A DNA stretch of 64,000 nt from Eledone cirrhosa (lineage: Eukaryota), in NCBI GenBank assembly GCA_964016885.1, contig OZ024749.1, positions 7,440,001 through 7,504,000 of the forward strand. Direction: 5' to 3'. The position numbers and the translations under genes were made by a program. The notes beneath the pieces are model-generated. The model made no database searches and was not told where the DNA came from. It saw only the letters and a program-made list of their open reading frames with translations. Of the stretch, positions 32,540 through 58,460 are shown piece by piece. Each line of letters starts with the position of its first letter. Positions within the stretch are counted from its first letter, which is position 1.

Positions 32540-33580
32540 ACCTGGTTTACCAATGCACAGTGGAATCAGACGACCAGAAATAGTATTACATCGGAGCGAC
32601 TGGGAATACCTTTAAAGCCCGTTGGTATACACACCGTTACGCAATGAAACATTCTCAGCAACGTTATGTAACTACCCTTGCAAACAAGACCTGCCAACTG
32701 AGGGAAAGTAACCATCAATACACCCTGAAGTGGAAAAAATTATCGAACGCGCTCCCATATCGGAGTGGTATGAGAAGCTATCGATTATGCTACCTTGAGC
32801 TGTTCCACATCTTAAGTTCGAAGAATAGGTTACTCAACAATAAAATCGAGAGATCAATTTATTGTAACCATAGACTTTATACCCTCTTGTTGTCTCTGAA
32901 CCCTTTAATTACCCACAAAACCAAAACATATATCCCTCCTTTCTCCCTCATTCCTCTTCTATTTCTTCGTTTTCTTCCTTCCTTCCCACCCCTTCTTGGC
33001 TATCTTTTCTTTTCTTCTTTCTCACCCCCTTCTTTGCTTTTATTTTTGTCATTATTATCTTTATCTTTATATATATATATATATATATATATATATATAT
33101 ATATATTTATCTCTTTATATCTCCCCCTCCCTCCCTCCCTATCCCTACCTCCCTCCCTCTCCCTCCCTCACACTATGATCAATTTAATTCACTTTAACTC
33201 ACTACATTCCACGACATGAAGTCTGGTATCAAAACTGACCAAGGAATCCTTGCACCTCTACCCCTCCCTCCATTTCAGTTTGTCATTCTACTTCCTACCT
33301 CTTCCCCCTTCCTCTCTCTCTATACTATTCCGTCTGTCCCCTCACCTTCTGATTCCTCTCTCTCTATACTAGTAAATACAATTCCAAATAAATGTTTTTC
33401 TCTATATATTAAGAATTATTTGAAGAGTAACTTACTATTTTGAAAATTTGGAGTGTGAACAGCAATTAGAATTGAGTGGCTGCTATTTGCAGTATAGCAA
33501 TATAAGGTTGCACTTACCAACGAAACGGTCGTAAATACCTGGATAAAATCCTTCTCTTAATGCTTACCTGTGTTTTCTCT
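32540..33580 (+). mobile_element. Second PLE family (Naiad-like GIY-YIG) 3' fragment
   Basis: VYQCTVE..YYIGATGNTFKARWYTH..TTLANK..YTLKW..PYRSG..LC.LE.FHIL..LLN.KIERS..C.H. Homologous to 57240-57802. Confidence 0.8.
33436..33537 (+). ncRNA. Type I hammerhead, U3-A8 core variant with a long helix II insertion
   Basis: TATT | TTGAAAA | tTTGG AGTGTGA...TTGCACT ta CCAAc | GAAA CG gt CG TA^ | AATA. Confidence 0.6.
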
Positions 33581-33739
33581 TTTGTACTATATATATATAT
33601 ATATATATATATATGTATTTATATATATACATGATGGCTAGTAGACCACTGATGATGGATAGTCCTAGGTTCTATTTCTAATTCTTCATTTTAATTTGTA
33701 TATCACATTTGCCACAACACATCACGCAATTTTTCTTTC

Positions 33740-34795
33740 CTATATATATATATATATATATGCATCTATGTATGTATATATATATATATATATATATGCA
33801 TCTATGTATGTATATATAGATGCATATATATATATATATATATATATATATGCATCTATGTATGTATATATAGATGCATATATATATATATATATATGCA
33901 TCTATGTATGTATATATAGATGCATATATGTATATATAGATGCATATATATATATATATATAGATGCATATATATATATATATATATATGTATATATATG
34001 TATGTATATATATATATATATATATATGCATCTATGTATGTATATATATATATATATATATATATGCATCTATGTATGTATATATATATATATATATATA
34101 TATATGCATCTATGTATGTATATATATATATATATATGCATCTATGTATATATGCATCTATGTATGTATGTATATATATGTATATATATATATATATATA
34201 TATATGCATCTATGTATGTATGTATATATATGTATATATATATATATATATATATATATGCATCTATGTATGTATGTATATATATGTATATATATATATA
34301 TATATATATGCATCTATGTATGTATGTATATATATGTATATATATATATATGTATATATGCATCTATGTATGTATGTATATATATATATATATATATATA
34401 TGCATCTATGTATGTATGTATCTATATATATATATATATATATATGCATCTATGTATGTATATATATATATATATATGCATCTATGTATGTATGTATATA
34501 TATATATGTATGTATGTGTATATATATATATATATATATATATATATATATATATGCATCTATGTATATATATATATATATATATATATGCATCTATGTA
34601 TATATATATATATATATATATATATATGCATCTATGTATATATATATATATATATATATATGCATCTATGTATGTATGTATGTATATATATATATGTATC
34701 TATGGATGTATATATATATATATATGTATATATATATGCATCTATGGATGGATGTATATATATATATATATATATATATATATATATATATATTC
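33740..34795. repeat. (TA)n array with a GCATCTATG higher-order unit
   Basis: Direct inspection. Confidence 0.95.
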
Positions 34796-35648
34796 TCATA
34801 TCCTTCAAACTTGATTCGGTATAATATGATACATGTTACTAGAATATATGACAAACTTTATGCATACTATGCTCGCATTTACATTCTATTTAGTAGGAAC
34901 GTATAATATATGCAAAAAAAATAATGTTTCATTTGGTAGTAATACATTAGTTCTATGCTGAATATTTCTATACATGTCACATATCTTGCCATATCAGCAT
35001 ATTTTGTTATTCTATTTCATATATTTATAGTAAAAAATAAATATTATGTTTTTGTCACAGTCTTAAATTATTTTTCCCCGTTATATTCATTTGCAACCAG
35101 TTTTATGATAGCCGAATGAAATTTGCTAATGTCTGTTATATATGAATTTTCCTTGACTATTTCTTGCTAAAGATCGCTAAGTTTGCCAAGATCTACATCC
35201 GGCTTCAGTGAATTCGTAAATAAAACATCCGGTGCCTCGTACAACTGAATAAATCAATTGGAAACATTTTGTTTTACAAAATCATTGAATTTTCAGTTTA
35301 GTTGTTCAAATAGTTTATTGGTGTATTTTTTTTATTGATTCAATTGAAATTTGTAGTCGCGATATTAAAACCTTATCACGATATAATGACTCTTAACAAA
35401 TTCTTCAGTTTTAATTTGTTGAGAAAGCAAATAAAAAACAATATATTTTTAGATATTAAATATGGTTGAAAAAATCTGCTTTGTTGTATTATGATATTCT
35501 CTTTATTCCACCATTTCATTACATACAAAAACCTCGGTGTTTGCTGTTTTATATATATATTTATTTATATATATATATATATATATATATATATATATAT
35601 ACGCGCTCATATATATATATATATATATATATATATATATATATATAT

Positions 35649-35755
35649 AATTGTTTCTACTTTAGGCACAAGGCCACCAATTAACCAGTACATTACTGGT
35701 ACTTTATTTTATCGACCCCGTAAGGATGAAAGGCAAAGTTAACCTCGGCGGGATT
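35649..35755 (-). mobile_element. Nin/Deu-like SINE, 3' half
   Basis: Reverse complement of the 9986 SINE core and tail. Confidence 0.8.
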
Positions 35756-35779
35756 ATATATATATATATAATAATGATA

Positions 35780-55804: not shown

Positions 55805-56058
55805 GGATAAACAGGAATAACTTGGCAGGAAGAATTGGTCAGAAAGAGAAATTTATTGAGAGTTCACCTTGGACTATAATTTTCTTTTTCTCTTTCAGAT
55901 AAAGTGCAACATGTTATTACATAATGCATGCGCTTGACCATGGAATTCATAATCAGTACTTGTAGACGGATATTCTACAGAACTGTATGTTAAGGAATGA
56001 ACTCAATAAATTTCTCCTTCTGACCAATTCTTCCTGCCTAGTTCTTCTTGTTTTATCT
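55805..56058. repeat. MITE-like inverted repeat (~60-bp arms)
   Basis: GGCAGGAAGAATTGGTCAGAAAGAGAAATTTATTGAG pairs with CTCAATAAATTTCTCCTTCTGACCAATTCTTCCTGCC. Confidence 0.7.
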
Positions 56059-56349
56059 ATAGATATATGTTACTTTAAAGGTTAATTGAACATATAAAAT
56101 ATATATCAATAATGTTTCTCAGTATAAAGCTCCATAAACTTCAGTTGAGGCCATCAATCATATAAGTTTAAATGATATATATCAGGATATATCAAGACAC
56201 AGCTAGAATTTTCTAGATATATACAGAACAAATAATATGTAAATAAATAAATATACATATTTGAATGGCCTACACTTCCTTAGACAAGTCTGTTTCTAGA
56301 AATCCCCCCAAAAATAAAATACACACCATAGATTTTAGTAACTATTATC

Positions 56350-56685
56350 TTCTTTTTTTTTCTTGTTCTTCGTTCCCGTATTCCTAAGAGGTTTGTGAGG
56401 GCTGATGTCTCAGACATGGCTTCCGGAAGAACGGCCGAGTAGATGGGTGTTATCCAAACTTCTTGCTCGTCTTCGAGATCTGGATTTCCTGCCAATCGTC
56501 TTCAACCGTAAAATCCGTTCAGTGACTCTTTCCTGAGAGATTCTAACAACATGTCCGCAGTATCGGAGATGTGATTTCTCAATTCGTTTTAAAGGCCCTA
56601 TCTGGAGCGACTTCCTGTTCTACGATCTTCGCAATTTATCGAGAAATGTTACTTGAAAACCACTTCGGAGGAACTCCATTTGAGT
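56350..56685 (-). pseudogene. RTE (Expander/Rex3-like) C-terminal relic with an A-rich tail
   Basis: MEFLRS..VTFLDKLR..RKSLQI.PL.RIEKSHLRYCGHVVRI..ER...GRKSR.R. Confidence 0.65.
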
Positions 56686-57150
56686 AGCATATATTTGTGA
56701 TTATATCGTGTCCAGTCGGTTCAGCGATGTCAGGTTGAGCGAAGTCATTTTGAGCGAAGGTAATATTATTTCAATTAAAAATACCTTCGCTCAAAATGAA
56801 TGGAACCGATTATATACTTTCGTTCATTACCCGATATTCGTGACAATAGGTAAGGGTTGGAAGGAACACTGAACTTAATTTATCCAGTTCAGCCTTTACG
56901 CCTAACCCCTTTCATCTAATCACAAACTGATGCATTACTAAACAAGCTTCAACAATTCTTGCAGCTCCATTGTTGATTATCCTAAAAGATTATTCACCGC
57001 AATTGGAGTTACCTTTGTTGAATTCTGTTGTGTTTGTATTGTTTTCCAGACTATGTATTTCAATTATTGTGGCTGCTTAGTTTTAATACTTTACCCCTTG
57101 TTTTCCTTTCAATTTACTTTATATATATACATATATATATATATATATAT

Positions 57151-58460
57151 ATCAAAGAAGAGAGAAATAGGACGAAGGTAAACAGTTACAAAAGAATTTA
57201 AATCCACGTATTAACAATTGTTTCATCAGAATTTCAGCAACACCCCAATCACTCAACACAATAATACACCTAATACACAACCACCCACTAACAAACAGTA
57301 TGCACAAAACACACTCACACACACATCTCAGCCCACCTATAACTCCACCACTGCCCATAACAGAAATTGTAATTGCCACCTTCCAGAGACTTGTCCATTG
57401 AATAACGAATGTTTGCATTCAAACCTAGTGTACAGGTGCTCGGTTGAGTCGGGCAACCAAACCTGGCACTACATAGGCAGCACTGCAAACACCTTCAAAA
57501 CTCGTTGGTACACGCATCGTTACGCAATAAAGCACCACCAACACCGTTACGTAACGACTCTCGCCGACAAAATTTGGCACTTAAAAGGGAATAACCGACA
57601 ATACACCCTTAAATGGACCAAACTCTCACATGCTCCTCCATACCGGAGTGGGATGAAAACGTGCCCGTTGTGTAATAATGAGCTCTTCCATATCCTAAGC
57701 TCAAGCCACCAACTACTAAACAAGAAAATTGAAAGGTCAATTTTTTGCCAGCATAAACTGAAAGCGAAGTTCTCACACTTCAAACCTTCAACTAAATCTT
57801 AACACTACCTCTCTTTCTACCCTAAATAACAATTCCACACTCCTAAAAATAGACTATATATGAAATTTAATACTTTCTTCCTTCATCTAAACTCTGGTAA
57901 GACTTTCGCCTGTCCACTATCAAATGCCACTTAAAATTATATCTTCCTTCTCTCTCCCTCTACTCATCACAACTTTTAGCACACAACCCTCCTCCCTCTC
58001 CCTTCTTGTAACTTAACTATATTCTTACAAATCCTCTCACACCACCCTATCTTTTTCTCTTTCACTCCCTACCTCCATCCCTTTTCTCTCTCTCTCTCCC
58101 TCTCTTTTGCCCCTCTCTCTCTCGGTTCCTCTATCTTACACTACTACTCCTTATTTCATTTCCTAAGGTCATTCCAACTTTGTATTTTGAAAATTCGGAT
58201 GCTACAGTATCTTTCTTGATTGCCTATTATAACATAGTGTAGCAATAATGGACTGAAATTCTGATGAAACAATTGTTAATACGTGGATTAAATTCTTGTG
58301 TAACTGTTTACCTTCGTCCTATTTCTCTTCTTTGATTACACTCCTCGTTTGTTCGTGTTTCCACTACAGAATCCCTACCAACATGTTGAGTCACCTTAAC
58401 GTATGTTGAGAACTTTCCTCACAACTTGTTCTACCAAGCTTTGGAATACTCCTAATTACT
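57151..58460 (+). mobile_element. Naiad-like PLE, 5'-truncated, with an inverted partial pLTR at the 5' end
   Basis: GIY-YIG ORF 57218-57802 (CNC..CPL..CL..VYRC..YIGST..FKTR..CPLC..E..LLN..CQH). 57151-57237 is the reverse complement of 58253-58336. Confidence 0.88.
58182..58282 (+). ncRNA. Type I hammerhead, U3-A8 core variant with a long helix II insertion
   Basis: GTATT | TTGAAAA | tTCGGA TGCTACA...TGTAGCA...TCTGAt | GAAA CAATTG TT^ | AATAC. Confidence 0.6.

Follow-up and report, generated by a model that had tools for sequence, protein, structure and literature searches.

What would a hammerhead ribozyme do with a helix II of more than 70 nucleotides, and is such a structure a hammerhead at all? 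The question is raised by a 64,000-nucleotide stretch of DNA from Eledone cirrhosa (assembly GCA_964016885.1, contig OZ024749.1, positions 7,440,001 to 7,504,000 of the forward strand; hereafter the window), in which an earlier note, made from the letters alone, had pointed to two hammerhead-like motifs behind endonuclease frames of Penelope-like elements (PLEs). Judged from sequence, these are genuine type I hammerhead motifs, predicted to cleave themselves, in the pseudo-long terminal repeats (pLTRs) of Hydra-clade PLEs, and their enlarged helix II, termed here the arm, is a conserved structure of a whole set of element families.

The Two Motifs of the Window

The core TATT-TTGAAAA … GAAA-palindrome-TH-AATA is read directly at positions 33436–33537 and 58182–58282, both on the forward strand and where the earlier note had placed it, and the same holds for the helix II bases (TTGG/CCAA and TCGGA/TCTGA), the helix III sequences (CGGTCG and CAATTG) and the two predicted cleavage sites. 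Both motifs lie downstream of homologous GIY-YIG endonuclease frames, as claimed (69% DNA identity over 342 nt), and the helix II spans described as about 70 nt measure 75 and 72 nt. In the first copy, assigned to family A, helix I is formed by 33436–33439 and 33534–33537, the core U3–A9 occupies 33440–33446 and G12–A14 33522–33524, and the palindromic helix III (33525–33532) is followed by the predicted cut after A33533. The motif scores 85 bits with covariance model R1 and fits the anchored table described below; its 75-nt helix II (33447–33521), unbranched by folding and in the anchored table, carries module 1 at 33474–33479/33494–33498 and module 2 at 33462–33466/33505–33508. In the second copy, of family B, the corresponding parts are helix I at 58182–58186/58278–58282, the core at 58187–58193, G12–A14 at 58266–58268 and the palindromic helix III at 58269–58276, with the predicted cut after U58277. 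Its 72-nt helix II (58194–58265) is unbranched by free folding, by the model and in the anchored table, with module 1 at 58218–58223/58239–58243 and module 2 at 58207–58211/58250–58253. An ATTAAA hexamer resembling a poly(A) signal stands 10 nt past the family B cut (58287–58292, forward strand), and the family A copy has GATAAA at this position.

As the earlier note had expected, standard searches miss the motif: Rfam gave 0 matches in the window at the gathering score, and at E ≤ 10 on three motifs it returned only chance matches and no hammerhead family. Since Rfam gives no match and the lone window copies fold like shuffled sequences (see below), the case is built on their genomic relatives.

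Hammerhead Signature in the Genomic Families

Copies were counted as matches to sequence patterns in the genome, with the reversed pattern as the control. The U3-A8 pattern of the window copies gave 1,649 matches against 1 reversed, far above chance; a long-arm pattern with a CUGANGA core gave 136 against 1, and a looser C3-G8 long-arm pattern 6,004 against 22. When the first 100 of these 6,004 were judged by eye, about 80 had the long-arm architecture, 18 belonged to family J (see below) and 2 were strays. The canonical C3-G8 core is found in most long-arm families, and among the U3-A8 matches there is also an older family, C, in which N7 varies. For the comparisons that follow, 23 representatives were hand-picked, one natural copy per family or subfamily, with families J, N and strays left out and with L114, in which the 3′ anchor is absent, swapped for another copy.

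In all 23 representatives the core boxes (Y)UGAN(R)A, GAAA and UH surround a three-way junction, and TTGAAAA is kept in 62 of 62 family A and B copies selected by their flanks. Positions 3 and 8 are C-G in 16 and U-A in 7, N7 is free (A in 9, U in 8, G in 3, C in 3) and H17 is never G (U in 15, C in 5, A in 3). Helices I, II and III are present, helix I being the open one, and helices I and II covary. The G10.1-C11.1 pair that closes helix II is absent, its place being taken by U·U (16), A·A (5), G·U (1) or A·G (1); this is not disqualifying, because hammerheads with U·U have been published from Hydra elements and from axolotl. The stem III 8-mer exists in nine sequences, fully self-complementary in 15 of the 23 and at six of eight positions in the other 8, and it provides 2 bp with a tetraloop in a monomer and up to 8 bp in a dimer, which, by analogy with related elements, points to cleavage as a dimer.

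Structure and Covariation of the Arm

Helix II spans 72–93 nt across the representatives, several times what is usual in hammerheads, and forms an unbranched, irregular hairpin, in the order basal stem, 5′ bulge, module 2, stem, module 1 and variable apical hairpin. To avoid alignment freedom, bases were paired by their fixed distance to the core and to module 1; 381 of 437 such anchored cells pair (87%), against 132–234 (30–54%) when the strands are slid. A tree-aware count gave 19 branches with a compensatory change (null mean 2.0; 0 of 5000 as high), and the two arm stems alone gave 7 (null 1.5; 14 of 5000 as high). A covariance model built from 40 copies, with families B and F left out, finds the family B motif at 74.5 bits and pairs it as one long hairpin, with which free folding agrees. 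Aligned by sequence only, the copies show pairing in 85.7% of cells and double-sided changes in 15 of 32 pairs. From the sequence-only alignment of 65, RNAalifold recovered no more of helix II than its 6 basal pairs. In a model-fitted alignment of 45 matches, which leans to structure and includes a few partial matches, 84.6% of cells pair against 70.6% when shuffled, 23 of 32 pairs change on both sides and the apical pairs of the arm covary as well.

Covariation of the long helix II had been claimed by the earlier note, which had named beforehand a covariance model of genomic copies and a larger alignment as its test, and in the genomic families it is present, both in the anchored pairs and in the tree-aware count. 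Two details of that description have to be given up. The inner stems AGTGTGA/TTGCACT and TGCTACA/TGTAGCA, compared there with each other, are not homologous, family B being paired differently by the model built without it, and they are minority alleles: AGTGTGA occurs in 2 of 35 family A copies (ACTGTGA in 28) and TGCTACA in 9 of 35 family B copies (TGCCACA in 21). Nor is helix II branched, since folding gives a single unbranched hairpin in both copies.

Module 1, made up of G-C, A·G, a bulged N, U-A and G-Y, is present without exception in the 23 representatives, 13 of them found with patterns in which it had no part. Module 2, which consists of A·G, a bulged N and U-A or C-G and was included in no search pattern, is found in 18 of 23, against a mean of 1.4 and a maximum of 6 in shuffled arms, and sits 9–11 nt below module 1. 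Both are copies of one small module, consisting of an A·G mismatch, a bulged base and a U-A pair, about one turn apart, and a spacing of 9–11 bp would put them on one face of the helix. The module may bear some resemblance to bulged-G/S-turn motifs, with the sheared A·G pair lacking. As to the loop 1–loop 2 contact of fast natural hammerheads, no conservation was seen in loop 1, and the apical loop 2 varies freely.

Origin of the Arm

Long-arm families E, H, I and M adjoin homologous frames (43–77% identity), which in family I is a stop-free frame of 777 residues; family H was first met by chance beside another locus. The reverse transcriptase (RT) tree was drawn from six long-arm families and 40 outside relatives hand-picked from 94. 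In it the six families form one side of a branch with support of 100/100, and families A and B, with U3-A8, are nested among those with C3-G8; in the motif tree two changes are needed at positions 3 and 8. On these sequence relations the arm is old and the swap of the core to U3-A8 late, because the U3-A8 families nest among long-arm families with C3-G8. All six families come from one genome, so that the long-arm clade and the host lineage are inseparable. Near-identical DNA of the family A and family I motifs is found in sequencing runs under two other organism labels.

Outside this clade the arm was searched for in 94 loci with relatives of about 26–38% identity. With a descriptor in which helix II could be as long as 130 nt, 78 matches were obtained (0 in five shuffles), all with a helix II of 12–25 nt, 77 of them C3-G8 and one U3·G8. 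The covariance model found no long-arm form in 324 kb of outside loci, 11 relaxed long candidates viewed by eye were set aside, including L182 after its context had been viewed, and a single-protein scan of metagenomes and a profile scan of viral contigs found no relative. Hydra-type animal retrotransposons do appear in several bacterial genome bins (L211–L227), likely as host contamination.

Other hammerheads of the same genome deserve mention. Family J (L322:1483–1624 on the reverse strand, L383–L394) combines a canonical core with a 93–97-nt helix II predicted to branch into two hairpins; its copies are 98–99% alike and young, some repeat at about 1 kb, and no Hydra frame was found nearby in 12 loci. 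On the predicted fold, family J is a second, independent way of enlarging helix II. Family N (L395–L404, motif at about 1501) adjoins Hydra-type frames (51% identity in L400); its core is U3-A8-like, its helix I doubtful, and its helix II, about 100 nt long, is predicted to branch. At L273, L274, L276 and L284 there are old copies that combine a U3-A8 core and G10.1-C11.1 with a helix II that is short, and no Hydra frame lies nearby. Ordinary short hammerheads give 2,554 pattern matches against 11 in the control, and among these matches are short-helix hammerheads in tandem or inverted repeats of 310–312 bp (L229–L244), similar to non-LTR retrozymes.

The Elements and Their Insertions

The element that carries the family A motif occupies 32539–33592 on the forward strand, as delimited by blastn to the full-length copy L065. 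It is 5′-truncated and consists of an endonuclease remnant with a deletion of about 70 nt near 32876 relative to other copies, a 3′ untranslated region (UTR) and the pLTR, and it stops in (TA)n at the near terminus, about 55–59 nt past the predicted cut. The family B element (57235–58468, forward strand), also 5′-truncated, was delimited by its 94% identity to the full-length copy L064, its translation and its ends; a frame with the CxCX5C linker and the GIY-YIG endonuclease runs to 57802 and is followed by the 3′ UTR and the pLTR, which stops in (TA)n at the far terminus, about 185–191 nt past the predicted cut. Immediately upstream, an inverted family B 3′-end piece, with the 3′ part of the hammerhead and the tail to the near terminus (57151–57236, reverse strand; 95% match to 58253–58336), is the usual inverted 5′ structure of PLE insertions.

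Each of the two endonuclease pieces has at least 150 scored matches in the 3.0-Gb genome. The longer copies have one frame, in which the RT comes first and the GIY-YIG endonuclease last, with a hammerhead motif on both sides, about 300 nt before the start codon and 400–1,100 nt after the stop (at 1274 and 4320 in L064, at 1259 and 4981 in L065). The frames of L061, L065, L066 and L377 are 747–801 residues long. The frame bears RWK (37), DKT (119), CNCHLPETC (644; CxCX5C), CRLC (742; CxxC) and CNH (770; CxH); GxKF/Y was searched for in the frame and is not present. The Hydra-clade signature has been described as RWK, DKT, the CxCX5C linker and CxxC with CxH near the end, without CCHH and without GxKF (PMC8557442). 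By architecture, by these motifs and by insertion into (TA)n, the elements are, at the level of sequence, Hydra-clade PLEs. Ends that run into TA repeats make up 57 of 75 in family A, 37 of 41 in family B and 20 of 25 in family I (114 of 141 in total).

The earlier note had called the elements Naiad-like. Naiad is defined by an N-terminal endonuclease (PMC8557442), and here the RT precedes a C-terminal endonuclease and all Hydra-clade motifs are present; no match to the CX2-5CxxC finger of Naiad, nor CCHH, was found in the frame, where a single cysteine lies between the GIY- and YIG-like boxes. An assignment to Neptune/Nematis, together with a 4×4 internal loop in the arm, was also entertained and gave way to the Hydra signature and the bulge module. 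Pfam returned no family for two full frames. Two basic low-complexity insertions are found in the frames of long-arm elements and are largely absent from 21 of 22 aligned homologs of the outside type, P0001 having both insertions; they are a loose correlate of the arm only. In L065, at about 1520–1545, a branch-point-like CTAAC and a pyrimidine run to CAG precede the start codon of family A by about 45 nt; they may be a 3′ splice site and are not clearly kept in B or I.

Two further features of the window belong to other repeats. A different repeat at 30901–32482, with a further piece at 59624–60029, adjoins the family A copy upstream; direct repeats of 180 nt (31077–31255 and 32311–32482) enclose a frame fragment whose LPPKF motif recalls the N-terminus of other PLEs, and a hammerhead scan of this repeat saw none. 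At 21756–25490 an unbroken frame of 1,244 residues with endonuclease, RT and C2H2 fingers represents an apparently young element of the long interspersed nuclear element (LINE) type.

What Could the Arm Be For?

The reading preferred here, which we place just on the probable side, is that of a weakly self-cleaving type I hammerhead in Hydra-clade pLTRs, active as a dimer or with help of a protein, whose 72–93-nt arm docks a protein of the element. Alone, the RNA would cleave weakly: either as a dimer through the palindromic stem III, proposed because related PLE hammerheads, weakly cleaving and barely active in vitro in their minimal form, work as dimers (PMC4209133), or helped by the element's own protein. 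Cleavage, slow and controlled, would trim read-through or tandem transcripts, free unit-length RNA and separate the RNA body from the hexamer, resembling a poly(A) signal, that stands 10 nt past the cut. Control would most likely be exerted through the arm, whose two fixed, unpaired modules share one face of the helix, with the element's protein as the likeliest partner. Docking is suggested by these two non-paired modules, fixed 9–11 bp apart, and by the PLE hammerhead of Anolis, which cuts only with the element's protein (PMC11167929). Reverse transcription of the Anolis element starts at two internal sites (PMC11167929). New insertions of the present elements would probably be copied from RNA that is uncut or has been re-joined, with two fixed start sites past the cut. 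That the arm is regulatory or binds a protein, as the earlier note had also supposed, is what we infer, with the two modules as candidates. A more ambitious form, in which a lineage-wide subclass uses its telomerase-like RT to dock the two-module arm and switch cleavage on, so that RNA is sorted between message and template via the poly(A) signal, seems unlikely to us.

Several observations weigh against the docking hammerhead. Each window copy folds no better than its shuffles (z −0.14 and −0.27; the inserts −1.46 and −0.58), helix I is only 4–5 bp long, and the hammerhead-constrained monomer costs 3.4–8.9 kcal/mol relative to the free fold in each of the 8 tested. When copies were selected by their endonuclease only, none of the 81 insertion ends fell within 5 nt of the cut; relative to it, the ends pile at +59/+188 (A) and +56–59/+191 (B), and family I has its ends at +45/+163. 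Because they sit past the cut and never at it, insertions appear to come from RNA that spans it, and cut RNA is not the usual template. Cleavage of the Anolis hammerhead was dispensable for insertion, no reads ended at its cut, and the protein-binding site was placed in the first 172 nt of the open reading frame, which is not shown to be helix II (PMC11167929). As for the arm, 3 of its 7 compensatory changes fall at one CpG-prone pair, 10 of the 23 representatives had been found with a pattern that included module 1, 3 nt beside this module are missing from a common family I variant, and short-helix Hydra relatives thrive with no arm. Might, then, the structure be kept without cleaving, for instance as a landmark for internal RT start, its catalytic bases persisting for folding only? 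The position of the insertion ends, the weak predicted monomer fold and the poor activity of minimal PLE hammerheads in vitro (PMC4209133) would all fit. Yet in all 23 representatives the catalytic positions are kept and G is avoided at H17, positions 3 and 8 covary and N7 varies freely, which argues for selection on the cleavage chemistry, and the stem III palindrome is kept through nine different 8-mers; a non-cleaving structure is improbable.

A hammerhead that cleaves could also have an arm with another partner, binding a host factor or acting by RNA contacts, and so tune cleavage against 3′ processing at the hexamer that stands 10 nt past the cut, or aid translation of the downstream frame, an explanation that is possible if on the unlikely side. 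AATAAA or ATTAAA follows within 25 nt past the cut in 19 of 23 representatives, compared with 25 of 72 outside hammerheads (upstream in 7 of 72; background 3.9% of 25-nt windows), and the origin of all known carriers in one host lineage fits a host partner. The hexamer, however, stands also past the cuts of short-helix relatives, so the arm is not needed for it, and family A is mostly without a perfect one. The translational version recalls viral type I hammerheads of 5′ UTRs, which support translation initiation (PMC13725137), and the frame here starts about 200–250 nt after the cut; the arm, though, lies upstream of the cut and would leave with the 5′ product, away from that frame. It is very improbable that the arm is selectively neutral, an insertion that loop 2 tolerates and whose structure is owed to common descent and CpG decay. 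The single origin in one clade, the low folding z-scores and the CpG-prone covarying pair agree with neutrality, but the length of 72–93 nt and both modules were held while RT identity fell to 43–45%, compensatory arm changes are in excess in the tree-aware count, and the apical pairs covary.

The role of hammerheads in PLEs is a puzzle, as they cleave poorly alone and were dispensable for insertion in the one in vitro system. That a whole clade kept a large modular addition to its ribozyme through deep divergence provides a handle on gating by protein or host that can be deleted and mutated, and the poly(A)-like hexamer so close to the cut hints at a definite task for cleavage. Descriptors with a short helix II, and Rfam, miss thousands of hammerheads in one genome; since such searches miss long-arm forms, statements that some elements lack hammerheads may need to be revisited with long spacers.

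Comparison with Known Hammerheads

The closest published counterparts are the Hydra-clade hammerheads (Craig et al., 2021; PMC8557442), which share the element clade, the place in the pLTR, the type I topology, a helix I of 4–7 bp, in many cases a U·U by the core, and a near-palindromic stem III ending in GU-H. In contrast to the 72–93 nt found here, 26 of 26 Hydra rows in that source, octopus Hydra-1_Obim included, have a stem II of at most 7 bp, a loop 2 of at most 10 nt and C3-G8. Cercyon elements of Schistosoma mansoni have minimal hammerheads with U3-A8, located in the pLTR and with a palindromic stem III region, as here (Cervera and de la Peña, 2014; PMC4209133); they belong to another PLE family and have a helix II of 7–8 bp with G10.1-C11.1, whereas here U3-A8 occurs inside a clade that has the long arm and otherwise C3-G8. 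An enlarged helix II is known from PLE-X1_sMoe of Selaginella (9 bp and a 35-nt loop, 53 nt, marked as non-canonical; PMC8557442). Compared by its description, in which no conserved modules figure, it is shorter and comes from a single, endonuclease-less plant family.

The PAc (Poseidon) hammerhead of Anolis (Frangieh et al., 2024; PMC11167929) resembles the present elements in two fixed RT starts past the cut, visible as two genomic ends, and in AT-rich targets. It differs in its short helix II, a frame that starts inside the ribozyme and a tail cited as 30–40 bp, whereas the two ends of the present elements are about 120–130 nt apart. In the axolotl retrozyme HHR_Amex2, too, helix II begins with U·U and helix III consists of 2 bp capped by a tetraloop; this hammerhead cleaves 22% in 1 h as a monomer and better as a dimer, and it differs in a short helix II with loop 1–loop 2 contacts and in being a non-coding tandem repeat of 350 bp (PMC7229834). 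The 'long helix II' of PMC13725137 is one of 6–8 bp. A conserved helix II of 70–90 nt was not found in the available text of the literature consulted, a retrozyme preprint (10.64898/2026.07.22.740005) included; the many PLE hammerhead variants of Lunse et al. (2017) may bear on this, and the accessible part of a recent octopus repeat annotation has no mention of ribozymes. The suggestion of an undescribed subclass thus stands for the long-arm form and falls for the core, since U3-A8 in PLE hammerheads had been reported in Schistosoma (PMC4209133); what is new in the hammerheads of these Eledone elements is the long, conserved, modular arm.

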